In this document: positions 14,619 to 63,560 of the stretch, piece after piece
How the letters are laid out: the number at the start of each line of letters is the position of its first letter
Position numbering within the stretch: the stretch's first letter is position 1
Assembly: GCA_965153355.1 (NCBI GenBank)
Contig: OZ231126.1
Span: 32,302,001 to 32,366,000 of the forward strand
Reading direction: 5' to 3'
Origin: Flaccisagitta enflata
Taxonomy: Eukaryota
DNA: 64,000 bases
Notes under the pieces: model-generated
Seen by the model: the letters and a program-made list of their open reading frames with translations, nothing else
Databases searched by the model: none
What the model was told of the DNA's origin: nothing
Position numbers and translations under genes: made by a program

Positions 14619-14676
14619 AAACAACAACAACAACAACAACAACGACAATGACAATGACAACAATGACAACAACAAC
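14496..14676. repeat. (AAC)n microsatellite
   Basis: Directly visible. Confidence 0.95.
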
Positions 14677-15498: not shown

Positions 15499-15536
<38 letters not shown>

Positions 15537-17584: not shown

Positions 17585-17965
17585 ATGTCCAAAGACATCC
17601 AGCCCTAAACACCACTGATGCCTTCTTAACGGCCTTCACAGCGTTAATTCAACTATCTATATAGCTATATGTCTTTTAGCATTCGTGCCCGAGTCCATAA
17701 ACTACGTCGGTATGTCTGAATCTTATCATGTTCGACACAAGAAGGCGTCCAAAGACATCCAGCCCCAAACATCACCCACGCCGTCTTAACGGTCTAAAGG
17801 CTCCCAGCGTCTATTCAACTATCTGTATATCTTTTCGCATTCGTGCCCGACTCCATTAGTGTCCGACTCTGTGTCGGTATGCCTGAATGTTATTATGTCT
17901 GACACTTGCAAGCGTCCAAAGACATCCAGCGCCAAACACCACCGACACCGTCTAAACGGTCTAAA
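17585..17965. repeat. Degenerate ~165-bp tandem repeat (~2.5 units)
   Basis: GTCCAAAGACATCCAGC at ~17587, ~17747 and ~17913. Confidence 0.75.
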
Positions 17966-18022
17966 GAATCCAGGGATCCATTTCTTTCCCTCTTAATCAA
18001 AACAAAGACGCGCCCGCATTTG

Positions 18023-42137: not shown

Positions 42138-43276
42138 CGCTCCCTTCCTCTCATCCCGGCCACCACATATCTTCCCCCTGTTCGCGTTCCGTTTTTTGCT
42201 TCCACCTCCGTCCGCTTCTTTGCTTCTTCTCTCATCTTATCTTCCTTTTTCTTAGCCTCGTCTCGTTCCTTATTTGTTAGATCGAGAGCAACAAACACGC
42301 TTTTCCAATCATGGTCTTTTCTCCCAAGGAATCGCGCCTTTTGCAAGAGTTTCTCCCGTGTCTCGTCGTCGCTCACTTTTACAACCAGCGGCCTTGGTTT
42401 TCCTCCGTCTTGCTTCTTCCCAGCCCTATACTTTGGCTCGACTTCTCCAACTATTTCAACCTCTATTGCTTCGGCCAAATCCCTTACAAACCTCTCGTCC
42501 TCCACGACCCTTTCTGCTGCGCTTTCTTTCTCTGACTCCTTCGCTCCATAGATGACAATGTTACAAGCTTTCTCCTCCCTCGTCCTCATCTCCACCGTCA
42601 GTTCTTCCTTGAATTCTTTCTTCGCCTACTCCATCCCAGTTTCAATTTCTTTTTCCATAACGACTATTTGCTCTTTTACCTGGTCTGTGCCATTCTTCAT
42701 CCTTTCGAGTTCGGCCTTGACTTGCTGCAGCTCGAGTTCTGCGGTGTTAGCACGTGCTTCCGCGGCGTTGGCTCTCTGTTCCGCGTCACTGATTTGTCCT
42801 TCGATTCTCTCCATTCTCTCGTTCATTCCCTGGTCCGAATTAGTCTCCAGTTTGGCGACCTTCTCAATGAGGACCTTGTTTTCCATGATGACCGTCCTCA
42901 GTTGTATCTTCACGTCCTTCATTTCGTCTTTGAACTGGGTTTTTGTTTCCTTCCCTTCGTCTTTTACCGCCTTGATCAAGTCGGCTTGCTGGGTGAAGGT
43001 CGTGTTTGAGAAGTCGATGAACCTTCGGCAAATCAGGCAGAAAAACGGAGATATACCGTGAATTTTTGTCATAGTCCCGCAGTTTTCCGCGAACTCGGGC
43101 GTCATTCCATCTACGCAGGCCGTGTGGTAGTGGAAGCCACACGCTCCACCACACGGAAGACTGCTGCCGTTTCCGCTAACACATTCCTGAGCACACTTGC
43201 CATACGGATTCTTCGTCGTTTGCTTCCGCAGTCGAGTGCTGCCGCTGCTCTTGTCGTCCTGCATTGTTAGGCTCAT
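42098..43276 (-). pseudogene. LINE ORF1 (PHD finger, coiled coil, RRM-like), ~392 codons, interrupted by in-frame TAG at 42626-42628
   Basis: The 216-aa and 165-aa ORFs are in the same frame; PHD-like C..CGGAC..HYHTAC..CLIC; NIVIYG..RPLVVK..DLT motifs typical of CR1/L2 ORF1. Confidence 0.85.
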
Positions 43277-48897: not shown

Positions 48898-50946
48898 CAG
48901 GTTTTCCTGCCTTTCTCCTGACATTTCGTGCTGCTATTTTTGGAACTTGTTTTGTCCTTTTGTCTCAAGGCTCGTTACTATCTTTGTCTCTCTACTCGTT
49001 ATTTCATACGTCGCTTTCTCTGTCTCAAGGCTCGAGAATAACTTTGTCTCTCTCCTCGTTACTTCATATGTCGCTTTCTCTGTCTCAAGCCTTGTCACTA
49101 TTTAGCTTTTCAGTCTTGGGCAGTGGCTCTAAGTCCAAAGGGCCGGTTTCATGTGTTTTTAGGGGGTTTGGGTGGAATTCTCTTATATCTGTAAGACTGT
49201 GTGTGCTTCTCCATTTCTTTATCAATCCATACATCCCCCATTTTAGGATCCTTAAGCCTGTATTTTAGGGCTTTCGACTTTTAGCCTCAAGAGTTGAAAT
49301 TTGGACTGAGTTTGAGATTTTGAGCCGAAATGTCCCAAATGTCTTGAATGTGGGATGTCAGTCTCGAGATAACATAAATATTTGCTCTACACAATGAAGC
49401 TTATTTTACTAAGGGCACGGACACCGCTCGGCTGGCCGGTTCCATTATTGTTTTTTTTTTACTTCTTTTCCTTCTTTTGCCCCGCGGCCAGAAGATGTCG
49501 CTGCTGCGACGTTGCAGCCATTTCTCTTTAGTTGATTTTACGGCCATTTGTCGTAAAAAAAAAGACGTTATCTAAAATCAAAAGAAAGAACCAATCAACT
49601 GAAATGACAAAATGACCAAAAAAGGTAAATTATGACCCCAAGGCATTTAGGTATAAGGAAAACAACAGAAAATACTGGAAATCAGTAGATATTCGAATGA
49701 AAATCCATACTGCCCACATTGGGAAAAAAGATCTCTTTAAAAACTGCATACTTATTTGACTACAGGTCGTCAAATGACACACATTCTTGAACAAAATACG
49801 TGGAAATTGCACCAGATCCTGGAAAACGATTGAGGGTGGCAAATAGCAATTCTCGAATGTGGGGCAATGTGAAAGTGTCAAACGTACCGATGGTAGAAGG
49901 AGGTGGTGATGGAGAAGAATAAGAAGGAGGAGGAGTAGGAGGAGGAGGAGGTGGAAGAGGCAAACGAGGAAGAAGATGTCAAACCTGCTGATGGATTTTC
50001 CGCTAAATAATAAAGTCTGTTGTTGCTCAATGGTTCAAAGTTATTCTAAGTCATTCTAAGATGAATGAAGTCAATTAGGTAAGTCAATCAGGCCAATTTA
50101 GTCAATTATGTCATTTTACATCATTTTTAAGTTATCTTTAGTCATCTTGATTCATTTGGAATCAATTTAAGTCACTTATGTCCCCCACGCGACTCATAGG
50201 TGTTGGCCATGTTAATTCTTGAATTTAGATGTTAGTATATACAAGAAAACATTCGTACAAAATGATGTTTTGACAATATCCTTAGTACTACAGATTATAG
50301 TGAGTCACTACCCCGCGTACCAATAAAAAAGACGCACTTTTGAATGGCTTATTGTAGCACCAAATTCAATAAAACCTAATGAAATTCTAGAACATTGGAA
50401 AGCCCTTTGAAAATACTTTCAGATGTTTTCTACCTTTTTTAGTCGCGTGCACGCGACTCTACAATGCGCTTTGTCTGCCCATCTGACCGACCGTTGGTCT
50501 GTTGGTCCTTCGGTCAAACTTTACTTTCTTCATTACTTTTAGTTATCTAAGTGTTTAGGTCAAAACAGTGTTGAAGTCATTCTTAGTCATTATAATTTAT
50601 TTTAATCATTTTATGTTTATCAGGAAAAAAAGTCCGAGTCAGACTTTTGACATGTTGGAAGAACAGGGTTTTCATTTTCTTTATCACCGAAAGTTTAGGG
50701 CTCTCCTAGGGGCGAATGGGCCCTCCAATGAAATTGATAGCGTAAGTAAATTTGATAATTCTCTTTTATTTGGCGCCAAGCAGAATGCTCTACGACAAAT
50801 ACTTTTTGCGCTATGATTTTTTAAAGATTTATTTACGAAAAATTCAAATGGAATTTTTTTAGATTTTTTTCGATTTTGTGTTTGATCAATGAAGGAGTGT
50901 ATTTATGTTTACTTGAGCATGCAAATACAAGAAAATATGTTTATGA

Positions 50947-51311
50947 AGTATGACATTGAAGTCATACGGACTGAAAGAAAGACGAAATTTCTTTGGAATT
51001 TCTTGGTTTACTCTTTAATTTTATCATTCATATAAAATTAACAATAAAATATATAAAACAACAACAAATAAAGGGCATTCTGTACGCTTAATGTTCTCTT
51101 ACCTGAAAGAAAGACGAAATTTCTTTGGAATTTCTTGGTTTACTGAAATTCCAAAGAAATTTTCGTTTATATATCACCCGCATTAGAAATCTGTAAAGTT
51201 TGTGGTGTAATACGTCAATTGCTAAATTAAATAGGGGTCCCTCATATTCTTATAAAGGACATTCTAATATTAGGGTGTTTCAAGTGGGTATAAGGAGTCC
51301 TATTCCATACT
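50947..51311 (-). repeat. 3' LTR
   Basis: AGTATG...CATACT termini; 3 mismatches vs the 5' LTR by eye. Confidence 0.95.
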
Positions 51312-51319
51312 TCCCCCCT
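51312..51319 (-). other. Polypurine tract
   Basis: Minus strand AGGGGGGA immediately before the 3' LTR. Confidence 0.75.
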
Positions 51320-51601
51320 GTTGACCAAAAAAAACCATTAGTGTGAACTAGGTTTTTTTTTCCTTTTTCAAATTCCCGGAATTTTAAAACAAAGTCGATC
51401 TCCTTTTACCCACCTAAAAATGAAAAACCTCAGAAATGCGGGCGTTTGCGTAACAATAACAATCGTTGAACGAACGGAAAATAACGGTCACGTTTTAACT
51501 TTATAAGTCACGACTTATAGGTTTGGATAGTAACTAAGACAGAAAAGGAGAATTCTAAATATCCAAATTATCAATCAACAACCCTTCCAACCAAAAGAAA
51601 C

Positions 51602-51608
51602 TATAAAA
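51602..51608 (+). promoter_or_regulatory. TATA box of antisense accessory gene 1
   Basis: TATAAAA ~80 nt upstream of GCCATC-ATG (51681). Confidence 0.55.
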
Positions 51609-51680
51609 GACTCGGCGTTTGTTAGGTTACCAAAATTCTTTTCTAATCATTTCTCCGCTTGATTACTGCGACAAGCCATC

Positions 51681-51841
51681 ATGAACGAATATCTCTTTCT
51701 CGCGTTGGCATCTCTTCTCTTCACCATGGGAATGGCTTCTGAATCAAATGAGCAAACCCTTGAGGATTACGTTAAAGATCCAGTTCCCTCGAATAAGTGT
51801 TTTCAAAAATTTGAGGGCTATTTGGAAAGCGTGGGCTACAG
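51681..51841 (+). CDS. Accessory gene 1, exon 1: signal peptide + start of ectodomain
   Basis: MNEYLFLALASLLFTMGMASESNEQ...SVGY; consensus donor AG|GTAAGT at 51842. Confidence 0.75.
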
Positions 51842-52007
51842 GTAAGTGGGGGGGGGAGAAAATTTTGAACACAAGATTAATGCAAAAGTTAGTTTAAGTT
51901 ATTATTACCTTCCTCGCCATGGTAACATATTAATTAGTTCAGGCTTGCATTAAAATCAAATACTTCTATTTCTAAAGGTTAACATGCCTGTCAATCATTG
52001 ATTTTAG

Positions 52008-52320
52008 GAAAGATGGGGATGCTTGTCAATTGATTGTTTATCGCACGGCTACTGGAAGAACCACTACTTCTCGATGTTTACCAGTATCAGAGAAGTATCT
52101 CAAAACTGAGTATAAAAAAAAAGTATTACAGAATACTGACGATGTCGAATATCTTCAATTTGGCACCATTGCCCTGGTGTTGCTCGATATTATTCTCACC
52201 ATATTCAAAATTTTTCAACAAAAGTTACAAACAACGCAAATCCTAGCAAATCAAGGCAATGCTCCCAATACTCCAACACCACTAAGACGAAACAGTCAGT
52301 ATGCCATACAAAACGTGTAA
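52008..52320 (+). CDS. Accessory gene 1, exon 2: rest of ectodomain, TM helix, cytoplasmic tail (spliced protein 157 aa, type I membrane protein)
   Basis: Acceptor ATTTTAG| at 52007, phase-compatible (AG|G = Arg), joins the 52030-52320 frame; TM FGTIALVLLDIILTIF. Confidence 0.75.
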
Positions 52321-53370
52321 ATCAGCATGCTCAGTCATTCGACAGTCGGGAAAAAAGGTAAAGTTCATACAGAGTAGTGAAACAATGGGAAATTAAGCAT
52401 GAGAGAAAAGGATAGAAATCAATAATTTGAAATTTGATTTCACACCGACCCCTTTTTCCATTTCCTTGATCAAAGTCCAAAGCTGGCAGCTGATTTAGCC
52501 AAATTTACTTCATTGGTCACTCATTTTATTCTAACTCCTGCCGTTTTCAATTCGTTTTTATTCTCAAGATTTTCCATTTGGGAACTAAATCATCAATCGA
52601 AAAAAAAAATATAACCATCATCGACTTCATGTCGTAAAAAAAAATATAGGAATTCCATAAAAAAAAAATACGACTACAGTACTGTCTGCGCATTTTCAAT
52701 CACTCCCAAATACCATCTGGTAAGGGCTTAGTGAAAATCCTTTATCCTTCAGACTAAAGAATTGATAATCTGGCACGTCCCTAGATAGCGCCGGGGGCAT
52801 ACTATCCTAAATAATACCGGTTTTTCAAGGGCTCACATTCACTGTCGAGACCTTACTTTAATTCGCCCCCCTGGGGTTAGCAAATTCTTTTTCTTTTCTT
52901 CTCTTTTTTCTTTTCCGTAATTTCTTTAGCCACTTATTTCCATGACTCTAAAATTAGACGCCCTCTCTGATCAACTTCGAGCTGATTGTCATTTGTTTCT
53001 TTGATTCATTTACTACCGCTCATTCACTCCCCCGTTCATACATCGTTCACTATTCATCAATCAGCTGTCAACATTCGTTCGTTTACCTGGCCAGGTTCAT
53101 TCATCACATTCATTCATCGTTCACATTTCACATTCATTGATCATCAGAGCGTCTCTAATATTAAACACTGATTGTTCTATATTCTCATTTTACAGGCTCG
53201 TATTTCTGTCTCAAAAGAAGCGGCTTTATATTACATCTTCTTTTTATTCATTTTCTTTTACTTCATTTCTTTTCTTTCTTTTAACAGCGAACGGCGGTTT
53301 CTTCTTTCTTTTTACATTTAGAGGGAATTTAATTTAAATTTGTTTCAAAAGTCATTATTCAAAATTCAAA

Positions 53371-53802
53371 ATGGCAAACTTTTCCCTTTACACGGGAAGC
53401 TCGGTTGATGATTACTTCTACGAAGAATCATCAACCACGCTTCCCAGTCCAACGGTTGCGTCCGTCCAACCGGACTCTGAGGCGGTGACATGGGGCTCGG
53501 TCGGAGGGGTCATCGGTGCCCTGATGTTGGTCTCAGGGGTCCTCGTAGCCCTCAGGCGCAAACTGGCAGCGGTGGACCGTTTCTTGGCCACCCTGCAGTC
53601 TGTCCCCAGGGCTGCGTTGGAACTTCTGAGGCCCCATCAGGCCCAAGACGCCTCCACCAGCCCCATGGCCACGCCAGCTGCCAGTGGCGTTCCGTTTAGG
53701 AACGCCACCGACAGTGCCAGAGCCCGAGTCCAAAATATTGAGATGCGAGGACTCGCCCCCCGCCATTGCGATGAGAATAATGCCCGTTCGCTGTGGGTTT
53801 AA
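53371..53802 (+). CDS. Accessory gene 2: 143-aa single-pass membrane protein (type III-like; FAST-like architecture)
   Basis: CAAA-ATG-G start, GC-rich ORF in AT-rich flanks, NFS sequon, Ser/Thr-rich N-terminus, Gly-rich TM, RRK, amphipathic helix; AATAAA at 53915. Confidence 0.75.
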   Translation: MANFSLYTGSSVDDYFYEESSTTLPSPTVASVQPDSEAVTWGSVGGVIGALMLVSGVLVALRRKLAAVDRFLATLQSVPRAALELLRPHQAQDASTSPMATPAASGVPFRNATDSARARVQNIEMRGLAPRHCDENNARSLWV

Positions 53803-53914
53803 ATTTTTCCCCACTTAAGATTTTCTTCCCCACTTTCCCCTTAAAGGGTTTTTAATTCAAAATTTTTCTAATTATTTCATTCTTTCATTTCTTGATTTTA
53901 TCCAAAATTTTGCT

Positions 53915-53920
53915 AATAAA
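53915..53920 (+). terminator. Polyadenylation signal for the antisense cassette
   Basis: AATAAA followed by an A-rich tract that ends 7 nt before the pol stop codon. Confidence 0.55.
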
Positions 53921-53948
53921 AAAAATACAAAAAAAAAAAAATACTGTC

Positions 53949-56900
53949 TCAAATCCATTCCAACGCATCGAGGCCGATTCCACCGTAGTGGCTCTTCGTC
54001 GTCAGCCCCGCATTTAGGACGAAATTGGCGTCAATCGACGGCGATAATTGGGCACCACGCGCCCTTCTTCTTGTCATTGGTGGCGAATTCGAGGCCTCGT
54101 TCTTTGTGGCCATTTCTTCCATGCGTTCACACAATCTTAGTAAGTCCTCCTTCGTTTGGTTTCTGGTGATTAGTAGCAAATCACCCGGCAGAATACAGAT
54201 ATCATCTGTCAAGATACTTTTGCATCTAAAAGTATTGGTACCGACGCGGTCCATGACCTCAAAGGCATTTTTTTGTAATTTGAATGCCAACTTTTTTTGA
54301 ATGCCTTTTGCGAACGAAGTCCTTTTTAGTAAGCAAAGATCTCCACTTTTAAGCCTACGGCCATAATCAGTTGGCGAACTGTGATCTTTTTTCTTTAGAA
54401 ACGACTGTACGTTGTAAAGAAGAGACTCTTCCGCCGCCCTTTTCGCCAAAGAAATGGTCTCCTTTGCGGATTTGCTTCCTTTTCCATCTTCCTTTGACGC
54501 AATGTTCATCAACGGCGCCTTTAAGGTAGGTGAAAAGTGTAATTCCCGAGGCGAAATCGCCCCTTCTTCCGTCATAGGGCCTAGCCCACTATGCACCGAG
54601 TTATTGTAACAAATGATTGATTCATTTACCAACTTTGAGAATGGCGTTTTTGGATTAGACGAGTGATACTTCATTATTAAACGACTAATAGTTGATATTA
54701 GTCTTTCAGCCTTTGTTTGGCACCTGCTAATGTTTGCCATTCCATGGGTAATAGTCACACCACTATCCATTAAAAACTTCCTGGTAGCACTGTGCTTTGA
54801 TAATAATGCGTTATCACATACTATAGATTTAGGCAATCCATTCCACGCCTTTCTCATTTCCATCACGCCTTCTAGTACATAGTCATCATTAGTACCATTG
54901 GTTGGCGTACCAAAAGCGTAACGGCTGAAACTGTCACAAAATATTAAGACATATTTTGGCAAGCCTGACGCTGTTTTAAACATTGTATATGGCCCCGCAA
55001 AGTCCATAACTACCAATTCTCCGCTTTGACATGCAATTTGTTCTCCATCATCCTCTTTTCTTGCTCTGTTTGTTATGTGGTTATTCAAAGCGCAACTTGC
55101 GCACCGTGAGATGTATGTGTTCACCTTGAATCTCAGCCTGAACGCGTACCACTTTTTTGCGATTGCCGTAAATGTCTTTCTTTGACCGATGTGTGACAGA
55201 CCAGATGGGCAGTTCACATCAAACTCGTGGGTTTTAGCAATCAGTCTGTCCATTTGTGAATCACCAACCACCAAAAGAGGATCGATTGAACCGTTTCTAT
55301 GTGCCCATAGGCGAAATAAGATACCCTGCTCATTCAGCCTAAAGCATAGCTTATGTCGTAAGAATGTCTGTATATCCTTAAGCAGGCTCAAAGCATTAAT
55401 TTTTCGGGGAATCTCCTCCTCGCCCCTCAAATACTGAGCACACTTCCTAATTGTTTCATCTTCCTGCATTTCCTTTGCCTTTTCCAGATTGTCATCGTCA
55501 TACACGGGCAGGGTCACGTCTCTAAAGATGTCCTCCACTTTTTCGTCATCCGCATCATTCCACCCTTCTCCTATCTCCTCATCTGTCAATCCGAACGAAC
55601 AGATGTTCATCCTCCCAAGCTCCTTCTTTTCCTCCTCCTCTTCCTCCTTGACACTTCGACGGCGAGTTTCCTTCGACGCGACGTCGTCGTCGACGTCGTC
55701 GTCGCCCTCAATGACGTCACCATCGTCCTCAACGACGCTTTCATGCAAGTCGGTGACGAATCCCTCATCACTGACGTCATCAATTTCATCACCTGCTCTC
55801 AAGGAATCCATCACTCTATCATAGGTGAATTCTCTTACACACTCACGTGTTGTTTTTGTCGATTTGTCTTTGTCTGTCTCCACCTCCATTGTCCCTTCTA
55901 TTTGGCTGTCAACCGCGTCCTTGCGGGAATCATAGTCGTCATGAATTGGCTTTTCTTTTTTCTCGACCGAAACTGCCTTCGCTAATTTCTGCTTTCTATT
56001 CCGAACGAAGAAATCTTCCATTCTTTTGCTTTTTGGTGCTGTGAAGAGTTTTTTCCAACTTATTGGATTTCCATCTCCATTTATCAAACGGCCTTCCATG
56101 AACCTTGGATAGGTCCCTACCGGTGATAACTTATTTCCTTGAGGGTCAAATGTCCTTTCCTGCCTGCTAAAGATATCTGCCATGTTCAATTTCCCATCCA
56201 CATGAATGACCTTGAAATCAAACCGTTGCAAAGAAAGGATTTTTCTTGCCAAATCCATTGGCACTCTATCAATACTTGCCCAATCTCTGCAAGTCTCGCT
56301 GTCACTTACAACAAAAAATTGCCTGCCAGAAAGTAGGAAAAAATACTTATGCGTCATTTGCCAAAGGGCGACCAGTTCCTTCAACCAAATTGGGTAACAA
56401 CGCCAATTTTCGGGTATGCATGAGCTCCATACTCCCACCAAATGCAATTCCTTTCTTCCCTGCTCTCCTGATTGCTTGTGCTTCAGTGGCAACATCATCT
56501 GTGTCAGTATCCCACTCAGGCTGCTAGATGAGGCGTCACAAAAACAAAAGATTGTGTCCTCCACATCAGCACTAGGTGTCCTTAATACACAGCATTCTGG
56601 GTCTAATAAATGCTCCTTTATGTCCTGCAATGCCTTATGATGAATCGCTGACGGCCTGAAACGAACACCCGGTTTGTTTAGCTCTCTCAGAGGTGCTGCC
56701 AATTCTGACAGTCTGACTGCCATTCTGTCAAACCAGACAAAAAATGCAAGCATTGCATTTAATTTAGCTTTTGTTTCTGGGAAAGCCAATTTCTTGATTT
56801 TATCAATCTTTTCTGATGACAATGACAGCCTCTCCTCTCCCACTAAGTGACCTAGAATTCTGGCCTCATCTCTGAAGAAAATACATTTCTTTGGGTTCAT

Positions 56901-59894
56901 CAGCAGATTGTAGTAACTTGTTGTGGCCAAAAAGTCAGGCAAATCCTTTTCTATATGTTCTTCCTTGGTCATTGAACAGCATGAAACATCATCCTGAAAA
57001 GGATATGATCTAGGGCAATTTTCATAGCATTTTGATGAGGTAAATTGCCCCAAGTTGGCCGATTGTACATTTCCCATCAATAATCTGAGAGACTTGTAAA
57101 CTTTGCCTAAAGCATAGATACCAAATAGCTGTTGTGTCTGCTCGTCTGTCTTGACCTGATGAAAAAATTCTACGAAGTCAAAGTTTGAGAATACTTTATA
57201 TTGTGACAGCTCTCTTCTGAATGCCTCACAATTTGGCAAAGGGAATGAACTCTTTTTCAGTGATTTGTTGAGAGATTTTTGGTCTACTACCATTCGACTT
57301 TTGTACCTAATTTTGTTCTCACCACTATACCATCTTTCTTCCAAAATGATAAAAGCATTGGATGCATAGATAGAAGCTGATTCTCTGGAATTATCCACCT
57401 CTTTAATAACACCCATGTTGATAAGGTCTTCAATATGCTTTTTCAAATACTTTCTCTTACTGTCTGGACATCTTCTCTGCTTATCCTTGACTGGCACCAC
57501 TCCTGGTTGAACCTCAATATGCACCAATGGGATATTCTGAATGCCAGCTCTGAACTGATCTTTCCTGTCAACATTGTAAAAAATATCCTTGAAACATACT
57601 AAAAGCTCCTTCAACTTGCTCAAATATGGCTCCTCTACTCCTGAAAAATCAAAATTTGCCAGAAATATTTCATCTGATGGCCAAAATTCTGATTTTGCTC
57701 TTTTGTCCTTTTCAAGGTCAAAGTTTGCTTTGACACCCAGCAGATGGAGATTAGGACTTTGTCGCTTCGCCTCTAAATCACAGTAAATTCCTGTGTCCTG
57801 ACACCTTCTCAACAGATCATTACTAAGTCTGCCTTTGTTCACTATATCAGAGAGAAGAACGGGGCCTGTGACGTCATGCAGACCGTTCCGTTTTTCGCCT
57901 GGCTGCTGCCCGCAGCTGCTTTTCATTCCAGCCTCTGCTGCTGCTTCGCTGGGTTTGTGTGACGCTGCCGCTTCTCCAACCACAACCTCCTCCACACGTA
58001 CATCGTCTCGCCCTACGCCGTCTCTACAGACAGCTGACAACTCTCTTCTGTCTGTCCGTCCACTTTTGACTCCGTCCGTCACTCCGCATATCAATCCTAT
58101 CATTTCTTTTTCTAGCCTTTCGCGTTTTTCTTTCTCAGCGCCTTGAGTCCATTTTCGTTCTCTCCTTACTATTTTGTCCTCTGAGGCCTTCTGTCTCCGT
58201 TCCAAATTCGTCTCACCCTCTGTCCGAGTTTTTTTTCTCTCATCATATGATTCTCCGATGGACGTAATATCACTCGCCTCTCTTTCGCGCTTGCTGCCTT
58301 TTGTGTCTGCTTCTACTCTGTCCTTCCTTATTTTGTCCGCACCTTCAAGTGAGCCTTCTATCACATTTTTGCGAGGCTGAATATCAAGCACTTCACACAC
58401 TATTCTCTTTGTGTAACTTTCATCTGTTTTGTTCCTTTTATCATTAGCGATGACATTGACGATGCCGTTGTCACTATCACTGATGACATTGCCGATTTTG
58501 ATGTTACTATTTGCGATGACATTGATGTGTTTGTCGACTAACTTGTCATTGTTGTCAGTGTTGTTTTTGATGATTGTTCTTTTGTTGTCAGTGTTGTTCT
58601 CGACTATTTTGCTCTTGGACCCAGTGTTGTTTTTGACGATTGTTTTTTTGTTGTTTGTGTTGATATTCTCGTATTCATTTTTTTCCTTTACTGTCGCGCG
58701 TTCAACTGTTTGATTTTTGCTTTTTTCATTCATTCCTTTCATCACCACATCTATTTTGCAGACATCAACTTGAAACATCTTCAAGCTACGCGTCTCTTGT
58801 TCGTCTTTGGTGATACCGTGCTTCACAATCTCACCTATCCTCCAACCTGCCTTAATCGTCATTTCCTCGCCGGTAAGATTAGTGACTGGAATCATGAAAT
58901 TTACAGTACCACTCTCATACGTGACCGAGGGTATGTAGACTGAATGTATCTCTTCATCATAGAACGAAAGAAATGAAAATTTACTGTCAGTCCTAAAATT
59001 TGGCTCTATTTTGCACTCGACCATCGTGATTGATGTTGGATCAAGAGTGACAGTCCGTCTGTTTGACATCCAGTAATTTCTCTCAACTTTTGGCCAATTC
59101 CTCTCCATTAAACTACGACTTTCCCACTCCTTCTTTCTTTCCTCCAGGCTATCAACTGCTTCATTCAACGACCTCGACGTCAAAATCCTTTCATCTTTGA
59201 TATACATCAATTCATCCCTCGTGCTCAAGTTGAGGCCCAGGCTCCTATCGCGAAGCAGGTCAGAACCTATAATTGATGTTTCCACATCGCACACATAGAA
59301 TGAACACCTCACACTTTGTGGGTAAAAATGTAGTGTAACATCCACCATATCTGTCACCTCCGCCCCTACTTGGCCTGTAAAACCTAGTAGTTGTACTCCT
59401 GGACCCTTCCTTTTTCTGATGTTTTTTACCAAAGCTGAGGCTATGACACTACACTCTGCTCCAGTGTCAATGAAGAATTCGCCTTTGACCGCGCCATCTT
59501 GACCATTATCACTCCCATCCTCACTCTCTTTGTCCCATGGTGATACCATACATGCCACATAGAATTTACTTCCTTTCATAAAACCCGTTGAACATCCATT
59601 TTCTTCCTCTTCTTCCTCAAATTCCTTTTTATTCACGTTAGCACAATGCAATGACTGTCTGTCACCTTCTCTGTCACTTTCACTGTCATTTTCACTGTCA
59701 CTTTCACTGTCACCTTCTCTGTCACCTTCTCTGCCACTCCTATCGTCACCTTCTTTTTCTTGCCCATTTAAAACATGTCCCACTGAATCTATGTTCAACT
59801 CATATTCATTCGGAGATTTTGATATTGAAAGACATTGTAATTTATCACCGATACTTTTCTCATCCTCTTTATGTGATAATGGTTGCTGTAATTG
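53949..59894 (-). CDS. pol: pol: aspartic protease, dUTPase-like region, RT, RNase H, integrase (open from the gag stop)
   Basis: FIDTGAECSVI..IIGSDLL; RT RMVVDQKSLN, FQDD (56988-56999), ILGH; RH CDAS..KELVAL..SDS; IN H..H..CxxC, MDFAGP, CDN, KAER. Confidence 0.95.
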   Translation of the reverse strand, partial: QLQQPLSHKEDEKSIGDKLQCLSISKSPNEYELNIDSVGHVLNGQEKEGDDRSGREGDREGDSESDSENDSESDREGDRQSLHCANVNKKEFEEEEEENGCSTGFMKGSKFYVACMVSPWDKESEDGSDNGQDGAVKGEFFIDTGAECSVIASALVKNIRKRKGPGVQLLGFTGQVGAEVTDMVDVTLHFYPQSVRCSFYVCDVETSIIGSDLLRDRSLGLNLSTRDELMYIKDERILTSRSLNEAVDSLEERKKEWESRSLMERNWPKVERNYWMSNRRTVTLDPTSITMVECKIEPNFRTDSKFSFLSFYDEEIHSVYIPSVTYESGTVNFMIPVTNLTGEEMTIKAGWRIGEIVKHGITKDEQETRSLKMFQVDVCKIDVVMKGMNEKSKNQTVERATVKEKNEYENINTNNKKTIVKNNTGSKSKIVENNTDNKRTIIKNNTDNNDKLVDKHINVIANSNIKIGNVISDSDNGIVNVIANDKRNKTDESYTKRIVCEVLDIQPRKNVIEGSLEGADKIRKDRVEADTKGSKREREASDITSIGESYDERKKTRTEGETNLERRQKASEDKIVRRERKWTQGAEKEKRERLEKEMIGLICGVTDGVKSGRTDRRELSAVCRDGVGRDDVRVEEVVVGEAAASHKPSEAAAEAGMKSSCGQQPGEKRNGLHDVTGPVLLSDIVNKGRLSNDLLRRCQDTGIYCDLEAKRQSPNLHLLGVKANFDLEKDKRAKSEFWPSDEIFLANFDFSGVEEPYLSKLKELLVCFKDIFYNVDRKDQFRAGIQNIPLVHIEVQPGVVPVKDKQRRCPDSKRKYLKKHIEDLINMGVIKEVDNSRESASIYASNAFIILEERWYSGENKIRYKSRMVVDQKSLNKSLKKSSFPLPNCEAFRRELSQYKVFSNFDFVEFFHQVKTDEQTQQLFGIYALGKVYKSLRLLMGNVQSANLGQFTSSKCYENCPRSYPFQDDVSCCSMTKEEHIEKDLPDFLATTSYYNLLMNPKKCIFFRDEARILGHLVGEERLSLSSEKIDKIKKLAFPETKAKLNAMLAFFVWFDRMAVRLSELAAPLRELNKPGVRFRPSAIHHKALQDIKEHLLDPECCVLRTPSADVEDTIFCFCDASSSSLSGILTQMMLPLKHKQSGEQGRKELHLVGVWSSCIPENWRCYPIWLKELVALWQMTHKYFFLLSGRQFFVVSDSETCRDWASIDRVPMDLARKILSLQRFDFKVIHVDGKLNMADIFSRQERTFDPQGNKLSPVGTYPRFMEGRLINGDGNPISWKKLFTAPKSKRMEDFFVRNRKQKLAKAVSVEKKEKPIHDDYDSRKDAVDSQIEGTMEVETDKDKSTKTTRECVREFTYDRVMDSLRAGDEIDDVSDEGFVTDLHESVVEDDGDVIEGDDDVDDDVASKETRRRSVKEEEEEEKKELGRMNICSFGLTDEEIGEGWNDADDEKVEDIFRDVTLPVYDDDNLEKAKEMQEDETIRKCAQYLRGEEEIPRKINALSLLKDIQTFLRHKLCFRLNEQGILFRLWAHRNGSIDPLLVVGDSQMDRLIAKTHEFDVNCPSGLSHIGQRKTFTAIAKKWYAFRLRFKVNTYISRCASCALNNHITNRARKEDDGEQIACQSGELVVMDFAGPYTMFKTASGLPKYVLIFCDSFSRYAFGTPTNGTNDDYVLEGVMEMRKAWNGLPKSIVCDNALLSKHSATRKFLMDSGVTITHGMANISRCQTKAERLISTISRLIMKYHSSNPKTPFSKLVNESIICYNNSVHSGLGPMTEEGAISPRELHFSPTLKAPLMNIASKEDGKGSKSAKETISLAKRAAEESLLYNVQSFLKKKDHSSPTDYGRRLKSGDLCLLKRTSFAKGIQKKLAFKLQKNAFEVMDRVGTNTFRCKSILTDDICILPGDLLLITRNQTKEDLLRLCERMEEMATKNEASNSPPMTRRRARGAQLSPSIDANFVLNAGLTTKSHYGGIGLDALEWI

Positions 59895-62180
59895 TCATGC
59901 CTGCAATCTGTCTTTGTCTCCGTTTCTGTCAGCGTCTCTGGCCAAGATGATGGCCTCAGATTTATCTTTTGGTCTGTCCTCACACTCTATGGCGATATGA
60001 CATTCTTTCCTCAAATCCACGCCACAACACGGACAAAATGACCGACAAAATTCATATGATCCATTCCATACATGTGTCTTACTTAAACAAGCGGCGCATC
60101 CAGATAATTGCATCTTTTTCATCTTCATGGCCAGGAGGATTCCTTCCGGCGTCATCCCCGATTCTGACGCTGACGAGATCGATGCTCCAATTTCGTTGAC
60201 GTGCGCCTTCCATGATGATTGCGTCCCTCTCGCCTGCGCGCTCGACGCTCCCGACGACGCGTTGGCGCCTCCACGTGCGCCACTTCCGGCGTAACTACCT
60301 CGTGGTAAACTCTGACTCCTAGGCGGCGCATACTTGCTCCAGTTTCCTCCTCCGCCGTTTCCATTCGACCATCCTCTACCGGCGCCACTATTTGACCATC
60401 CTCTACCGGCGCCGCTCGACCATCCTCTACCTGCGGCGCCGCTCGTCCATCCTCTTCCGGCTGGTGCGCTTCCTCCTCGTGGCGCCGGTGCTCCTCTCGT
60501 TTGCGTATTGTGGCCCCTTCCTCTATGTGAAGCTGACGAACTTTGCTGAGAACCTGTGTTGGTTAAAGCCGAAACGTTGCGTTGATGGTTATTTTTGTTA
60601 TCCTTGCCCTCCAAGAATGCTTTATCGAGGCTTATCTGAGCCTCTATGTGTTGAGCGTGATTGGCAAGCCGTCTCAATGTTCTTTGCCCATCCTGATATT
60701 GTGCGTTTGACACTGTGTGTGCTAATGTTCTATTGTATAATCCTGCCAAAAATGGTTGGATGTAGTCGTTCTCTTGTCTGCCAATGATGAATATCAAATC
60801 AACATAATCTGTGAAATACTCTGAAACCGACTCATTGCTTTGTTGTTTACGGTTGTGAAGTCTCCCCAACGCAATCGAGTCTAAATTAGGATAGAGTTGA
60901 TGCTCAAATTCCTTAATGAATGCCATAAAGCTAGAAAACGTTGCCTCGCGCTTGAAGATAGGCTGAAACGTTTTATAGAAGACATGAGCTTTCAAGGCGA
61001 ATATCCCCAAATGAGTGAACATAGGGCAAGCGCCAAAATAGCAAGACAACTGATCAACTAGCTTACGTCTTTGTTCCAAGTACAATAATGCATCCATATT
61101 TTCCTTAAAATCAACATTCACAATTTTCGCCGCCCTCACTACACTATCAGCGTCAGCTTCACCACCACATAGAGTTCCTCCTCTAGGAAACATGAGAACT
61201 ACCCCTGGTTTTTCAAACAACCCTGGATATTGCGGCGTTGAGGGTGGGTTGGGAGATGGGGTGGAAATTGTGTGTGTATTGGCTTGTACATCGTACACCG
61301 ACCTATTCGATGACGCTGGTCTCAAAATTCCATTTACTATCCTTTGACCGGATGCTACTCTTGTCTGACCTGATGTTCCAGTCGTTTGACCTGATGTTCC
61401 AGTCGTTTGACCTGATGCCTCAGCGCCTTGCTTGGACGAATTGGACGAATGAGTCAAGACGGGTGAGAAAGAGAAATGTACTTTCTTCGTTGCTCCAACG
61501 CCGCCTATTGCTCCTGCCTCCGTCGCTCCCGCGTCGTCGTTATCTGCCGGGAACAATCTGTTGCCATCTGCAACGATACTTGCATTATCAATGGGCCATG
61601 TTGTGCGATCCCCGGTGTGGTCCCACCCATCATCATCATCCTCACCATCACCATCATCATCATCTTCATTCTCACTCGAAGACTTTGATTCTGTGTTAAG
61701 TGATACCAATAAGTCGTCTACATCTTTGAAAATCCTTTTCATCTCATTCTCATTCCCGCCTGTAATAAATGCTAGATAGGCGTCATTCAAATTGCGCATC
61801 AGGTGTAACATGACTTGTTTAGTTGCCTGAAGACTTCTAATCCTTTCTTGATTTGACTCGATGGTCTGGGCCTGTCTCTCTACTGTATTTTGTAGCGCAT
61901 CAATCGCTTCTGATTGTTTGCCTTCAGTATCTGCAGACCGTATACATCGTACTAGGTTATTCCTCTGTTGTAATAACTCACGAGTGAACTGATCAACTGG
62001 CATTTTCGTTTTTGATTTACATCCTTTTATCGACCCACCTTTGTGCTGTGATGGAGGCCTCCAGCATTTCGGACACCAAATGGTGGCTGAGACACCAGGT
62101 CTCAGTTGTGATATTCGAGCTGACAAGTCTGCTATCTCTTGAAGAAGCTCATTTGTAGTTACCTCCTCTGGGGTTGACAT
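59895..62180 (-). CDS. gag: gag, 761 aa
   Basis: N-terminal CX2CX6HX7C and coiled coil; capsid MHR-like KQQSNESVSEY; RG-rich GRGWS repeats; C-terminal Cys/His zinc motifs; located after the PBS. Confidence 0.9.
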   Translation of the reverse strand: MSTPEEVTTNELLQEIADLSARISQLRPGVSATIWCPKCWRPPSQHKGGSIKGCKSKTKMPVDQFTRELLQQRNNLVRCIRSADTEGKQSEAIDALQNTVERQAQTIESNQERIRSLQATKQVMLHLMRNLNDAYLAFITGGNENEMKRIFKDVDDLLVSLNTESKSSSENEDDDDGDGEDDDDGWDHTGDRTTWPIDNASIVADGNRLFPADNDDAGATEAGAIGGVGATKKVHFSFSPVLTHSSNSSKQGAEASGQTTGTSGQTTGTSGQTRVASGQRIVNGILRPASSNRSVYDVQANTHTISTPSPNPPSTPQYPGLFEKPGVVLMFPRGGTLCGGEADADSVVRAAKIVNVDFKENMDALLYLEQRRKLVDQLSCYFGACPMFTHLGIFALKAHVFYKTFQPIFKREATFSSFMAFIKEFEHQLYPNLDSIALGRLHNRKQQSNESVSEYFTDYVDLIFIIGRQENDYIQPFLAGLYNRTLAHTVSNAQYQDGQRTLRRLANHAQHIEAQISLDKAFLEGKDNKNNHQRNVSALTNTGSQQSSSASHRGRGHNTQTRGAPAPRGGSAPAGRGWTSGAAGRGWSSGAGRGWSNSGAGRGWSNGNGGGGNWSKYAPPRSQSLPRGSYAGSGARGGANASSGASSAQARGTQSSWKAHVNEIGASISSASESGMTPEGILLAMKMKKMQLSGCAACLSKTHVWNGSYEFCRSFCPCCGVDLRKECHIAIECEDRPKDKSEAIILARDADRNGDKDRLQA

Positions 62181-62398
62181 CTTGGAAAAAAGTCGAAGAT
62201 CCTACCTCGGCTTTTACACGGACGGCGAGAGCCGCCGTTAATGTTTCTGTCTGATCGAAACGAAGATCGATACCGCCTCGCGATGATCGATGAACTTTGG
62301 GAGAGACCCGCGTTGAATCCCTTTTCTTAGAAACGCCGCCGGGGCTCCTGCCCAACTGACCGAATAGCCACTTGTGGCGCGCAGATTTTACTAGACCA

Positions 62399-62409
62399 CC
62401 GTGCCTCCA
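62399..62409 (-). other. Primer-binding site, probably tRNA-Thr
   Basis: Minus strand TGGAGGCACGG directly after the 5' LTR; complementary to ...CCGUGCCUCCA, as recalled for tRNA-Thr 3' ends. Confidence 0.65.
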
Positions 62410-62774
62410 AGTATGACATTGAAGTCATACGGACTGAAAGAAAGACGAAATTTCTTTGGAATTTCTTGGTTTACTCTTTAATTTTATCATTCATATAAAA
62501 TTAACAATAAAATATATAAAACAACAACAAATAAAGGGCATTCTGTACGCTTAATGTTCTCTTACCTGAAAGAAAGACGAAATTTCTTTGGAATTTCTTG
62601 GTTTACTGAAATTCCAAAGAAATTTTCGTTTATATATCACCCGCATTAGAAATCTGTAAAGTTTGTGGTGTATTACGTCAATTGCTAAATTAAATAGGGG
62701 TCCCTCATATTCTTATAAAGGACATTCTAATAGTAGGGTGTTTCAAGTGGGTATAAGGAGTCCCATTCCATACT
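62410..62774 (-). repeat. 5' LTR
   Basis: Matches 50947-51311. Confidence 0.95.
62605..62636 (-). promoter_or_regulatory. LTR core promoter: TATA + Inr
   Basis: Minus strand TATATAAA (62636-62629) lies 29 nt upstream of the A of TCAGT (62607). Confidence 0.65.
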
Positions 62775-63150
62775 ATGAGCACAGCTGCTCATCTGTGAGG
62801 GCATTTTTGAGCATTTTAGCTCATTTAGCTCACTAAGCTCAGTCTGTTTTTTCCGATTTCAAATATGATAAATGAATAAATATTTTCAAACTTGATTAAG
62901 CAAGCAAATAAAAAAACATGTCAGTGAGCAGAGCTGCTCATCTGTGAGGGCGTTTTCAAGTATTCTAGCTCATTTAGCTCATTCAGCTTGCGCTTTTTCT
63001 CTGATTTTAAACAGGATAAATAAATTAATGTTTTGACTTAAGCATGCAAATACAAGAGAGCATGTCAGTGAGCAAAGCTGGTTGTCTGGTTGAATCATTT
63101 TGATCATTTTAGCTCATCTAGCTCATTTGGCTCAGTCCTATTTTTCTCTG
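62775..63150. repeat. ~144-bp tandem repeat that hosts the LTR insertion
   Basis: TGAGCA.AGCTG at ~62776, ~62926 and ~63069; the unit's AGCATGCAAATACAAGA segment also lies left of the element (~50916). Confidence 0.75.
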
Positions 63151-63560
63151 ATTTTCAGTGCAGTCAATACATACAATTGCTTTTGATTTGATCTAACAAA
63201 ATTTCAGTGACTGAAGATGGTGAAAAGTGACCAATGCGTACGACTTTTTTCCTCACGGCGACAGCCGCCATTACTGGTATTTTGTCACTCAGTCAATTTG
63301 TCAATTTAGTCGTTTAAGTCATTTATCATCATTTTATGTCTTTTGAAGTTATTTCTAGTCATCATAAGTCATTTTAAGTCAATTTGAGTCATCCTAAGTC
63401 ATTCATATCCCGTAGGCGACTTATAGGTGTTGGCCTTGTTTGTTTGGAAATAGCATTAGTTTAAATCAAAACTTTGTCTTTTTATTTTCACAATCCTCAT
63501 ATAAAAAGCAAAATAGAGCTTCTCTTTGGAAGGCTCTAGCTCCTAAACCGTTTGAGATAC

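Follow-up and report, generated by a model that had tools for sequence, protein, structure and literature searches.

What is a small membrane protein gene doing on the opposite strand of an LTR retrotransposon, in the place where retroviruses keep env, and could it help the element to pass between cells? The question comes from a 64,000-nucleotide stretch of contig OZ231126.1 of the Flaccisagitta enflata assembly (hereafter the window, to which all positions refer). The original prediction had described there a small transmembrane protein resembling the FAST fusogens of reoviruses, encoded tail to tail with pol, and had proposed it as a candidate cell–cell fusogen or surface adaptor replacing Env.

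An antisense gene in the env slot of a Ty3/gypsy-type element

The gene, ORF2, sits inside a complete, young LTR retrotransposon with LTRs, target duplication, PBS, polypurine tract, gag and a pol of PR-RT-RH-IN order, an organization that places the carrier among Ty3/gypsy-type elements (Table 1). The two LTRs show 3 mismatches over 366 compared positions (99.2% identity). The gag frame ends in TGA, followed by CAA TTA, and pol contains the Pfam domains RVP, RVT_1, RT_RNaseH, Integrase_H2C2 and rve; their scores are weak (RVT_1 at E = 3.7e-10, rve under its cut-off), which indicates that the carrier lineage is divergent. The 64-kb window holds no second copy of the element and no tRNA gene, and Pfam recognized no family at E ≤ 0.001 among the 122 other ORFs of at least 75 aa outside the element. 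Empty-site reads from three runs, X1, X5 and X11, join the two flanks and agree with the target duplication.

Table 1 Positions of ORF2, its neighbouring gene and the carrier element within the window
Feature	Position	Strand	Description
3′ LTR, 365 nt	50947..51311	-	termini AGTATG...CATACT on the + strand
5′ LTR	62410..62774	-	
Target-site duplication ATGA, 4 bp	50943..50946 (left copy); 62775-62778 (right copy)		
Polypurine tract ACAGGGGGGA (- strand letters)	51312..51321	-	abuts 3′ LTR
PBS-like sequence	62391..62409	-	begins TGG, directly after 5′ LTR
gag, 761 aa	59895..62180	-	weak Retrotrans_gag match
pol	53949..59894	-	frame shared with gag, behind a single in-frame stop
TATA-like box	51602..51608	+	79 nt upstream of gene 1 ATG; putative function
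Gene 1 exon 1	51681..51841	+	signal peptide and ectodomain start; ends AG|GTAAGT; model predicted from sequence
Gene 1 intron, 166 nt	51842..52007	+	GT..AG, predicted from sequence
Gene 1 exon 2	52008..52320	+	remaining ectodomain, membrane helix, cytoplasmic tail with conserved RRNSQYAIQ, stop
ORF2, 143 aa	53371..53802	+	stop included; predicted N-outside/C-inside single-pass glycoprotein
ORF2 glycine-rich transmembrane helix, codons 42-61	53494..53553	+	G45 invariant; G46 and W41 nearly so
AATAAA	53915..53920	+	sole + strand copy in spacer; candidate ORF2 poly(A) signal

Between pol and the polypurine tract lies a 2.6-kb spacer, the slot of env in retroviruses, in which no sense-strand ORF reaches 80 aa (the longest has 77 aa). 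ORF2 lies in this spacer, between pol and the 3′ LTR and antisense to gag–pol, an arrangement of the aORF-3R type, and the env position supports the original prediction on this point. The two genes do converge tail to tail, with the pol stop codon (53949-53951, minus strand) 146 nt from the ORF2 stop; since they do not overlap, ‘antisense’ here denotes the opposite strand inside the element and not an overlap with pol. The interval first assigned to the protein, 53371..53941, reaches past the reading frame, which ends at 53802, and includes a 3′ untranslated stretch with the AATAAA 113 nt past the ORF2 stop and 28 nt ahead of the pol stop codon. The start codon stands in the context AAAATGG. 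A signal-peptide exon spliced onto ORF2 from exon 1 of the neighbouring backward gene (gene 1) was considered and rejected: an in-frame stop lies 11 codons ahead of the ORF2 start, and all relatives share the start methionine.

In composition ORF2 breaks sharply with its surroundings, at 59% GC against 33% and 23% in the flanks and with a GC3 of 0.65 against 0.45 for pol, 0.43 for gag and 0.37 for gene 1; the GC3 break would fit a foreign or host origin. It speaks for a passenger, that is, a transduced host gene or gene pair captured once, intact only through young lineages and without a role in the life cycle of the element. Gene capture by LTR elements is documented in the part of the review by Vicient and Casacuberta (2020, PMC7264820) available to us, both backward genes seem to come with signals of their own that resemble a promoter and a poly(A) site, gene 1 contains an intron in the manner of a cellular gene, and the layout of the protein resembles that of ordinary host type III glycoproteins. 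The same part of the review separates transduced genes, found in one or few copies, from true additional ORFs, found in most copies. In DNA run X5, word depth, which is not the same as copy number, was 1152-1527 on ORF2 contigs, 1666-2012 on pol and 2194-2487 on the spacer; ORF2 thus appears to be multi-copy with the element, its depth being of the same order as that of pol and spacer, which weighs against a passenger. In run X1 the flanks stood at a depth of about 50, and the interval 53467-54070 fell to 0-16; among the contig pieces listed none bridges ORF2 to pol.

A conserved family under constraint

ORF2 proved to be a genuine, conserved gene for a small single-pass membrane protein, with 90 distinct relatives at 25-99% identity, 81 of them full length (130-147 aa). 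Seventeen relatives at 51-99% identity (E ≤ 0.01) came from 217 candidates; a profile search of 1.84 billion representatives returned 12 matches at E ≤ 0.001, of 75-147 aa and none longer, and added 9 relatives at 25-35% identity, all of like length. An N-terminal N-x-S/T sequon is present in 80 of the 81 full-length members and has been retained although it moved, standing at N3 in the window's branch and at N5-N10 elsewhere. It is followed by a conserved aromatic patch, [IV]-W/x-D-[FYL]-[LF], in an N-terminal tail that is acidic throughout the family, and then by one glycine-rich membrane helix and RR. The tail contributes the motif N-x-[ST]-D (80/81) and an aromatic–aliphatic C-terminus, [WY][VLI] (76/81); position -2 relative to that end is variable, with E, L, M, T, Q, S or V.

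Within clusters of at least 90% identity, in a comparison that took only intact predicted ORFs as input, the 38 columns that stay conserved from cluster to cluster had 0.58 variants per column and the 96 variable columns 1.16. Recent changes thus tend to miss the conserved positions (permutation p = 0.003; Spearman -0.32, p = 2e-4). Two mosaic variants, P0003 and P0004, point to recombination between element subfamilies. We are highly confident that ORF2 is a real, element-borne gene under constraint and not a chance frame.

These results also bear on a passenger origin. Start, length, motifs and C-terminus are kept over 25-99% identity while recent variants spare the conserved columns, none of the relatives comes from a named proteome, no longer, host-like form occurs among the 1.84 billion representatives, and the mosaic variants again suggest exchange between elements. 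Together with the copy depth, they leave an inert captured gene an improbable account.

Searches beyond this family gave little. Pfam had no match for the window protein. The transmembrane–juxtamembrane model TM_ErbB1 matched 7 of 23 members weakly (best E 0.0026), which we do not take as family identity, the likeness being generic to transmembrane–juxtamembrane segments; a PDB profile search found no family (best E 0.13). A scan of JGI metagenomes with the family alignment produced 599 pattern matches and no relative, and three loci from a scan with P0070 were rejected, all being bacterial genes that matched an 8-residue pattern by chance. IMG/VR scans with the ORF2 family alignment and with the RT-IN part of pol found nothing, and a query with the C-terminal 250 aa of pol found only 3 matches, on contigs of about 1 kb that are uninformative on ORF2–pol linkage. 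That linkage is seen in this window only.

Predicted layout of the ORF2 protein

Most of the layout originally read from the window protein stands. The N-terminus is not hydrophobic, in keeping with the lack of a signal peptide; it is rich in Ser/Thr (13 in the first 41 residues) and carries an N-F-S sequon, at N3. The hydrophobic segment 42-61, with G42xxxG46 and G45xxxG49 (best 19-residue Kyte–Doolittle window 43-61, mean 2.26), is followed by RRK at residues 62-64, and the protein ends in SLWV. The next stretch, residues 65-78 (LAAVDRFLATLQSV), is present and predicted to be helical as proposed, but its amphipathicity is not distinctive, the maximum hydrophobic moment of 0.74 being matched or passed by 17% of 500 shuffles. 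AlphaFold2 modelled a continuous helix over 41-85, at a mean pLDDT of only 54. The sole cysteine of the window protein is residue 133, 72 residues past the helix. Gly2, the myristoylation site whose absence had been entered as a caveat, is missing from the window protein and from all 81 full-length members.

All 24 proteins examined have a single hydrophobic window (Kyte–Doolittle 1.84-2.75), an N-flank charge of -4 to -9 and a charge of +1 to +3 over the 15 residues past the helix. R62 is invariant, and basic residues in the family number only 2-3, net +1 to +3 over 15 residues. From this charge distribution and the conserved sequon, the ORF2 product is probably an N-out/C-in membrane glycoprotein. 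The glycine-rich helix would serve as a signal anchor, the acidic, Ser/Thr-rich N-terminus of 41 residues would be translocated and N-glycosylated, and the RRK-led helix with a mostly disordered tail of about 80 residues would remain cytoplasmic, where the conserved tail motifs (R-N-x-[ST]-D..IEMR, a Cys and the terminal [WY][VLI]) may engage host trafficking or cytoskeletal factors.

Such a protein need not fuse membranes. The element could use it in a non-fusogenic accessory capacity, either to bind host proteins (PDZ, trafficking or cytoskeletal) as an adaptor, or as a decoy, or to clear a surface receptor or restriction factor, or to prevent re-infection. The small accessory membrane proteins of retroviruses and host glycoproteins of type III, for example glycophorin C and SMAGP, are the comparators for this logic. 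Conservation in the family is strongest in the motifs of the cytoplasmic tail and at the very C-terminal end, and a conserved N-glycan site without an acylation site fits an adaptor better than a FAST-type fusogen. In the ESM Atlas the best score was 0.87, and the look-alikes at 0.80-0.84, namely TMEM154, opalin, SMAGP, stannin and UL132, belong to the small single-pass proteins of adhesion or adaptor type, although scores below 0.9 are leads only and one third of shuffled proteins reach 0.8; the weak ErbB1 match points the same way. The likeness to glycophorin or syndecan, which the original prediction had conceded, fits the N-terminal sequon, the aromatic–aliphatic C-terminus and these look-alikes. 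Against an adaptor, the variable residue at -2 from the C-terminus is unusual for a single PDZ class, no host partner has been identified, and the env-slot position and the insect precedent discussed below favour a role in transmission. On balance we regard a purely non-fusogenic adaptor or decoy as unlikely, though a serious contender.

An intron-bearing partner gene and putative expression signals

ORF2 has a neighbour on the same strand. Gene 1 (51681-52320) is a second backward gene, conserved and predicted to encode a type I membrane protein with a signal peptide. Relatives of its exon 2 show 96%, 98% and 61% identity, and their homology begins exactly at the predicted splice acceptor. 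The predicted intron could survive retrotransposition only because it lies antisense to the genomic RNA. The database relatives of gene 1 are all unspliced genomic ORF calls, three of which (P0059, P0091 and P0093) read through the intron, and no spliced form occurs among the database proteins; Pfam found nothing in gene 1, and the ESM Atlas gave no usable match.

Each of the two genes appears to have its own putative expression signals: a TATA-like box ahead of gene 1, a good start context and a single AATAAA past ORF2 suggest that integrated copies could yield transcripts of the pair separately from the genomic RNA that the LTR drives. In the poly(A) RNA run X24 there were no reads on 50900-55400 among the 12.2 million records read, a count that we do not take as a test. 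Metatranscriptome contigs from X11 cover 51368-53262 only, at a depth of 3-5, with the gene 1 intron unspliced and ORF2 uncovered, and the expression check found no joints in any run.

Alternatively, the element might be regulated at the RNA level, by an antisense transcript or by a structure within the GC-rich patch, for example through double-stranded RNA with the genomic RNA, and the open frame would be incidental. Retrotransposons such as micropia and IAP have antisense non-coding transcripts, and for the antisense ORFs of plants a role through dsRNA has been put forward (PMC7264820); in the RNA data used here neither reads nor contigs fall on ORF2, whose protein is predicted from sequence. 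What is preserved down to 25% identity is the start codon, the length, the moved sequon, the helix, the spacing of the motifs and the last two residues, features that selection on RNA would not preserve; nor is there any Rfam match at E ≤ 0.1 over 50500-63200. We therefore give a regulatory RNA very little credence.

Comparison with known small membrane proteins and antisense genes

The closest functional precedent is sORF2 of the Drosophila MDG1-group elements 412, Stalker2, Mdg1 and Blood, a set of FAST-like small proteins found at follicle-cell membranes with capsids (Voichek et al. 2025, bioRxiv 10.1101/2025.03.14.642691). From the portion of that preprint available, 7 of 22 Lepidoptera consensus sequences have an sORF2-like gene on the downstream side of pol, all 105 reported arthropod candidates run forward and depend on the LTR promoter, and the search that yielded the insect set required an N-myristoylation motif. 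Like sORF2, ORF2 encodes a small single-pass membrane protein in an env-less Ty3/gypsy-type element, resembling nothing else in sequence, with an N-terminal ectodomain that lacks a signal peptide and with basic residues and a helical juxtamembrane stretch past the membrane helix. Unlike sORF2, it stands on the strand opposite gag–pol, has putative signals of its own and belongs to a marine plankton organism and not an insect, and its family has no N-myristoylation motif (0/81) and a conserved N-glycosylation sequon. It lacks a Tyr directly past the helix and has a long tail with conserved motifs. At 143 aa with a 41-aa ectodomain it exceeds the 63-107 aa and roughly 30 aa that the preprint's accessible text gives for sORF2-like proteins, and its partner is a type I membrane protein, whereas that of sORF2 is there described as the subnuclear sORF1.

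Against the reovirus and rotavirus FAST proteins p10, p13, p14, p15 and p22, as they are described in Viruses 2026;18:193 (PMC12945298) and by Voichek et al., ORF2 agrees in size (143 aa, family 130-147 aa, within 100-200 aa), in its layout of ectodomain, transmembrane helix and endodomain with a predicted outside N-terminus, and in its juxtamembrane basic residues, glycine-containing helix and disordered endodomain. It differs in having no myristoylation, palmitoylated di-cysteine, polyproline or cystine-noose hydrophobic patch, in an ectodomain that is acidic and probably glycosylated, and in being encoded by the antisense strand of a retroelement. The layout, the predicted N-out/C-in topology and the sORF2 precedent support the label FAST-like; the acylation that raises hydrophobicity in FAST and sORF2 proteins and any sequence similarity are absent, and the amphipathic helix is not statistically distinctive. 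Fusion is known for the FAST proteins and would be presumed for ORF2 by analogy.

For position and strand the nearest parallels come from plants, where, according to Vicient and Casacuberta (2020, PMC7264820), the Ty3/gypsy elements Grande (gene23), RIRE2, Retand and PvRetro13 carry additional antisense ORFs in the interval from pol to the 3′ LTR. As far as these are described there, ORF2 shares their slot, orientation, high-copy family and lack of similarity to known proteins. An own promoter has been demonstrated for Grande and is putative for ORF2. Compared by description and not by sequence, the plant proteins studied are nuclear or contain an SMC domain, whereas ORF2 is a predicted membrane protein; an intron-bearing partner gene goes unmentioned in the part of the review available, and the hosts belong to different kingdoms.

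Membrane glycoprotein genes in the env slot are also known from LTR elements of marine or aquatic invertebrates. In the Oikopleura Tor elements an extra, internal promoter drives env, which frees its expression from the 5′ LTR (Henriet et al. 2015, PMC4402516), and the Vesta elements of bdelloid rotifers carry a short, transmembrane-bearing ORF3 (PMC5408684); in the available portions of both accounts these genes lie in sense orientation, unlike ORF2. In HTLV an antisense promoter resides in the 3′ LTR (PMC7264820, in part). ORF2 resembles retroviral antisense genes in being a protein gene on the minus strand near the 3′ end of a reverse-transcribing element. These genes include HBZ and HIV-1 ASP, the latter reported as a small hydrophobic membrane-associated protein. 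Compared by description, they share sequence with env or the LTR and are initiated in the 3′ LTR, whereas ORF2 stands free in a dedicated spacer. Full-text literature searches brought up no LTR retrotransposon with a small transmembrane protein encoded in antisense; the supplements of Voichek et al. may list non-canonical candidates.

A possible role at the cell surface

Taken as a whole, we tentatively read ORF2 as an accessory surface glycoprotein that the element carries in its env slot, possibly for cell-to-cell spread, and hold this at somewhat less than even confidence. A part in intercellular transfer or fusion proper, which follows from analogy, is less probable and on the unlikely side. 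In that case ORF2 would reside at the cell surface and help capsids to pass from cell to cell without Env, possibly together with gene 1, in the mode proposed for Drosophila sORF2 and the reovirus FAST proteins; both the surface location and the own promoter are presumed by analogy. A transfer model from soma to germline would not hold if the host were unicellular.

The most far-reaching version joins the two backward genes into an independently evolved, two-gene antisense substitute for env, in which a glycosylated, non-acylated FAST-like ORF2 and the small type I glycoprotein of gene 1 would be expressed from their own promoter and allow Env-independent passage of capsids. We consider it decidedly improbable. 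It would uncouple production of the surface proteins from genomic RNA and, if true, would add a new class to the small fusogens and represent the first transmission module that a retroelement encodes in antisense.

Implications

Small membrane proteins that move env-less retrotransposons between cells were recognized only in 2025 and, within the sources available, only in insects, and the ORF2 family would escape the insect search filter that requires a myristoylation site. Its existence indicates that retroelements of other lineages, too, maintain small putative surface proteins, unrelated to those of insects, in the env slot and under constraint. ORF2 stands apart in its opposite strand, in the intron-bearing partner beside it and in its probable glycosylation in place of acylation. 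A role in transfer or fusion, if it has one, would enlarge the set of minimal fusogens and of known routes by which retroelements reach new cells; if it has another function, it would provide a clean antisense accessory gene pair of animal or protist type in a field so far concerned mainly with plants. Either way, the ORF2 protein is small, defined and testable.

Carrier element and genomic setting

ORF2, the 143-aa ORF studied here, very probably encodes, on the element and under selection, a small membrane glycoprotein of predicted N-out/C-in orientation. In this window it plainly belongs to a complete LTR retrotransposon, since it lies within the LTR and target-duplication boundaries. The original observation of a small membrane-protein ORF that runs antisense, tail-to-tail with pol, is confirmed.

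The two LTRs of the carrier show 3 mismatches over 366 compared positions and have inverted termini (AGTATG...CATACT on the plus strand), with a 4-bp duplication, ATGA, on either side. The uninterrupted target site is present in reads or contigs of three public sequencing runs, where the loose ends at 50946 run into the sequence right of 62774. A gag of 761 codons, with a weak Pfam match to Retrotrans_gag, ends in a single in-frame TGA and continues in the same frame into pol, whose domains run from protease through reverse transcriptase, RNase H and integrase zinc finger to integrase core; the modest Pfam scores of the element lead us to assign it to a divergent Ty3/gypsy-like lineage. The hexanucleotide CAATTA directly behind the gag stop is the classic read-through context of plant viruses and, given this context and the shared frame, Gag-Pol is probably made via stop-codon read-through, not frameshifting. 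With 1876 aa counted from its first ATG and 1981 aa between stops, the pol ORF is of unusual length; it has long acidic and basic low-complexity inserts at residues about 300-520 and 1250-1400 and a tandem repeat that encodes N/K/T-rich units.

Features of the element and its surroundings
Feature	Position	Strand	Remarks
Complete LTR retrotransposon	50947-62774	-	
LTR pair	50947-51311 and 62410-62774	-	
Primer-binding-like site			TGG-initiated; adjoins 5' LTR, inside element
Purine tract			adjoins 3' LTR, inside element
gag end, TGA CAA TTA	59889-59897	-	
Tandem repeat in pol (family D4)	58526-58657		33-nt units
pol stop codon	53949-53951		
ORF2	53371-53802	+	
Gene 1	51681-52320	+	start 51681, stop 52318-52320
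Repeat flanking the element	50900-50946 and 62775-63132		
Non-LTR retrotransposon ORF	39285-42236	-	984 codons

The window DNA is eukaryotic, at ~40% GC. The element is inserted into a repeat, probably a major satellite of the host; three copies (family D3) lie right of the element at a start-to-start spacing of 144-149 nt, and word depth in the DNA run X5 climbs to ~570,000 in the flank, versus 1,200-18,000 across the element bins. The window also holds many GA/CT and trinucleotide microsatellites and an intact-looking non-LTR retrotransposon ORF with an endonuclease/exonuclease/phosphatase domain and a reverse transcriptase (RVT_1, E = 1.8e-31). Outside the LTR element, 122 stop-to-stop ORFs of at least 75 aa, a set exclusive of low-complexity ORFs and the non-LTR ORF, yielded no Pfam family at E ≤ 0.001, and a search of the window for tRNA genes found none; the DNA outside the two retroelements seems to be gene-poor and repetitive.

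Two backward genes in the env slot

The 2.6-kb spacer between the pol stop and the purine tract has no sense-strand ORF of 80 codons; its opposite, plus strand carries gene 1 and ORF2, both of which are predicted to encode membrane proteins and occupy the env slot in backward orientation. Gene 1, modelled from sequence, has a TATA-like box 79 nt upstream of its start, a first exon that encodes a signal peptide and ends in a consensus donor (AG/GTAAGT), a 166-nt GT..AG intron and a second exon. Its predicted product, a putative type I membrane protein of ~157 aa, comprises the signal peptide, an ectodomain with cysteines, a single membrane helix and a short tail, with an invariant motif, RRNSQYAIQ, at the cytoplasmic end. 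Database relatives of exon 2 (96%, 98% and 61% identity) become similar exactly at the predicted acceptor and end at the same stop. Introns can survive in a retroelement only when they lie on the antisense strand.

All gene 1 database proteins are unspliced genomic calls, and no splice joint was seen in any sequencing run compared with the window. Contigs of the X11 metatranscriptome cover 51368-53262 at a depth of 3-5; they contain the gene 1 intron in unspliced form and stop short of ORF2. The poly(A) RNA run X24, the sole raw-read RNA run used, placed 0 reads on 50900-55400 in a sample of 12.2 million records (~6% of the run), a result that carries no weight for or against expression.

The ORF2 ATG, with A at -3 and G at +4, stands 11 codons downstream of an in-frame stop, and the sole AATAAA on the plus strand of the spacer sits between the ends of the two coding regions, 113 nt past the ORF2 stop and 28 nt short of the stop codon of pol. 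ORF2 forms a GC island (59% versus 33% and 23% in its flanks), with a GC3 of 0.65 compared with 0.45 in pol, 0.43 in gag and 0.37 in gene 1. A serious rival, which we consider quite improbable, is that ORF2 is a captured host passenger, and this composition would fit it. In X5 contigs, word depth, which does not equal copy number, is 1152-1527 over ORF2, 1666-2012 over pol and 2194-2487 over the spacer, so ORF2 is repeated to the same order as the remaining element. In the marine metagenome run X1, word depth falls from ~50 on the flanks to 0-16 over 53467-54070, from the latter half of ORF2 through its 3' UTR to the final codons of pol; this seems to be the most variable stretch of the element between populations. 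No contig bridging ORF2 and pol was found among the contig pieces listed, and scans of metagenomes and IMG/VR gave no usable locus for the relatives.

A conserved and constrained protein family

Length is weak proof that ORF2 is a gene, because 35 stop-to-stop frames in the window reach at least 150 codons. The matter is settled by conservation, evident from 90 distinct family sequences, cluster members included, at 25-99% identity. A word-seeded search of 5.8 billion proteins gave 217 candidates, 17 of which are relatives at E ≤ 0.01 (51-99% identity, 108-144 aa); a profile search run exhaustively over 1.84 billion representatives gave 12 proteins at E ≤ 0.001, nine of them new at 25-35% identity; all 12 are 75-147 aa long, with no longer or fused form among them. 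The relatives derive from ENA, Logan and one JGI assembly, and none of the 90 carries a name or a Pfam domain. Full-length proteins (130-147 aa) account for 81 of the 90 and shortened or frameshifted ones for nine, a mix expected of a gene on a decaying multi-copy element.

Common to the family is an acidic N-terminal region of ~40 residues, which in the window protein contains no basic amino acid. Of 81 full-length members, 80 have an N-x-S/T sequon no later than residue 10, at Asn3 in the branch of the window and at Asn5-10 in others, so that the site is kept despite its shifted position. There follow a Trp, the glycine-rich start of the sole hydrophobic helix (G45 invariant), A-[VL]-R-R behind the helix (R62 invariant), a conserved helical stretch, proline P98, the tail motif R-N-x-[ST]-D and then IEMR (80/81; N111 invariant in a 23-sequence alignment), a single cysteine near the C-terminal end and a terminal aromatic-aliphatic pair (76/81). 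Such features are hardly compatible with a merely RNA-level function or the opposite reading frame.

Constraint was assessed, instead of by dN/dS, from protein variants within seven clusters of at least 90% identity, sampling only intact predicted ORFs. Recent variants were rarer on the 38 columns conserved between clusters (0.58 per column) than on the 96 variable columns (1.16; permutation p = 0.003; Spearman -0.32, p = 2e-4), which supports purifying selection on the predicted protein.

Three relatives (P0003, P0004 and P0104) are mosaics of two subfamilies, in which the N-terminal half, made up of ectodomain, TM and helix, and the tail at the C-terminus have been exchanged, with a breakpoint at about residue 77. 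The N-half of P0003 is 97% identical to the type of relative P0007 and its C-half 96% identical to the window type; in P0004 the N-half is 100% identical to the window type, and the C-half matches the P0007 type at 87% identity. The swaps suggest recombination among subfamilies of the element near that residue and a modular protein; the X1 depth drop fits P0003 and P0004.

Predicted form of the ORF2 protein

The best 19-residue hydrophobic window scores 2.26 (KD) and the next best non-overlapping one 0.86. Charges flanking the helix are -6 on the N-side and +3 on the C-side of the window protein, and a negative-N/positive-C bias holds in 24 of 24 proteins examined. By the positive-inside rule, the established basis for reading membrane topology, these flanks predict a type III, N-outside/C-inside protein with no cleaved signal; retention of the N-terminal sequon would accord with a glycosylated ectodomain. 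AlphaFold2 (23 sequences) placed helices at 41-85 and, a short one, at 114-125, the rest being of low confidence (mean pLDDT 54). The tail N-x-[ST]-D is also sequon-shaped; because the residues around it are conserved as well and N-P-T occurs in one member, we read it as a putative short linear motif on the cytoplasmic side. The conserved terminal [WY][VLI] might serve as a PDZ-type ligand or as a hydrophobic ER-export signal at the C-terminus; the residue at -2 varies across the family, which speaks against any one PDZ class.

Comparison with known systems and possible role

Drosophila MDG1-group elements have no env and encode a FAST-like small membrane protein, sORF2, found with capsids at follicle-cell protrusions (Voichek et al. 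2025, 10.1101/2025.03.14.642691). The same study lists 105 sORF2-similar genes in arthropod Metaviridae consensus sequences, all forward-oriented, of 63-107 aa and with ectodomains of ~30 residues, in a set chosen by a filter for proteins that have both a TM helix and a motif for N-myristoylation. The definition of FAST proteins (PMC12945298) comprises an ecto/TM/endo layout, combinations of hydrophobic patch, polybasic, polyproline or RPH motifs, and myristoylation or palmitoylated cysteines. The FAST-like layout originally proposed for ORF2 stands as regards size range, ecto/TM/endo order and basic residues. An acylation site is found in 0 of 81 members, and the amphipathic signal is no stronger than in shuffles. 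As ORF2 is moreover longer than sORF2, antisense and equipped with a predicted glycan site, we do not count it among the FAST or sORF2 proteins, though its way of working may still be theirs. That it is instead a non-fusogenic adaptor or modulator is a serious rival, though on balance unlikely.

In orientation and position between pol and the 3' LTR, ORF2 resembles the additional ORFs of the plant elements Grande, RIRE2 and Retand, reported to have their own promoter and, where studied, to encode nuclear proteins of unknown function (PMC7264820). Membrane ORF3s of rotifer Vesta elements are described on the sense strand (PMC5408684), and the Oikopleura Tor env as able to use an internal promoter (PMC4402516). 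A full-text literature search, exclusive of the supplements of Voichek et al., turned up no LTR retrotransposon for which a small membrane protein on the antisense strand, or an antisense pair of genes with an intron, has been described.

In the explanation we prefer, argued from position, layout and precedent only, the ORF2 protein would act at the cell surface and promote Env-independent spread. We put this forward tentatively, at somewhat less than even confidence, and regard the transfer role itself as doubtful. ORF2 is directly testable, and from this it derives its moderate to high interest.
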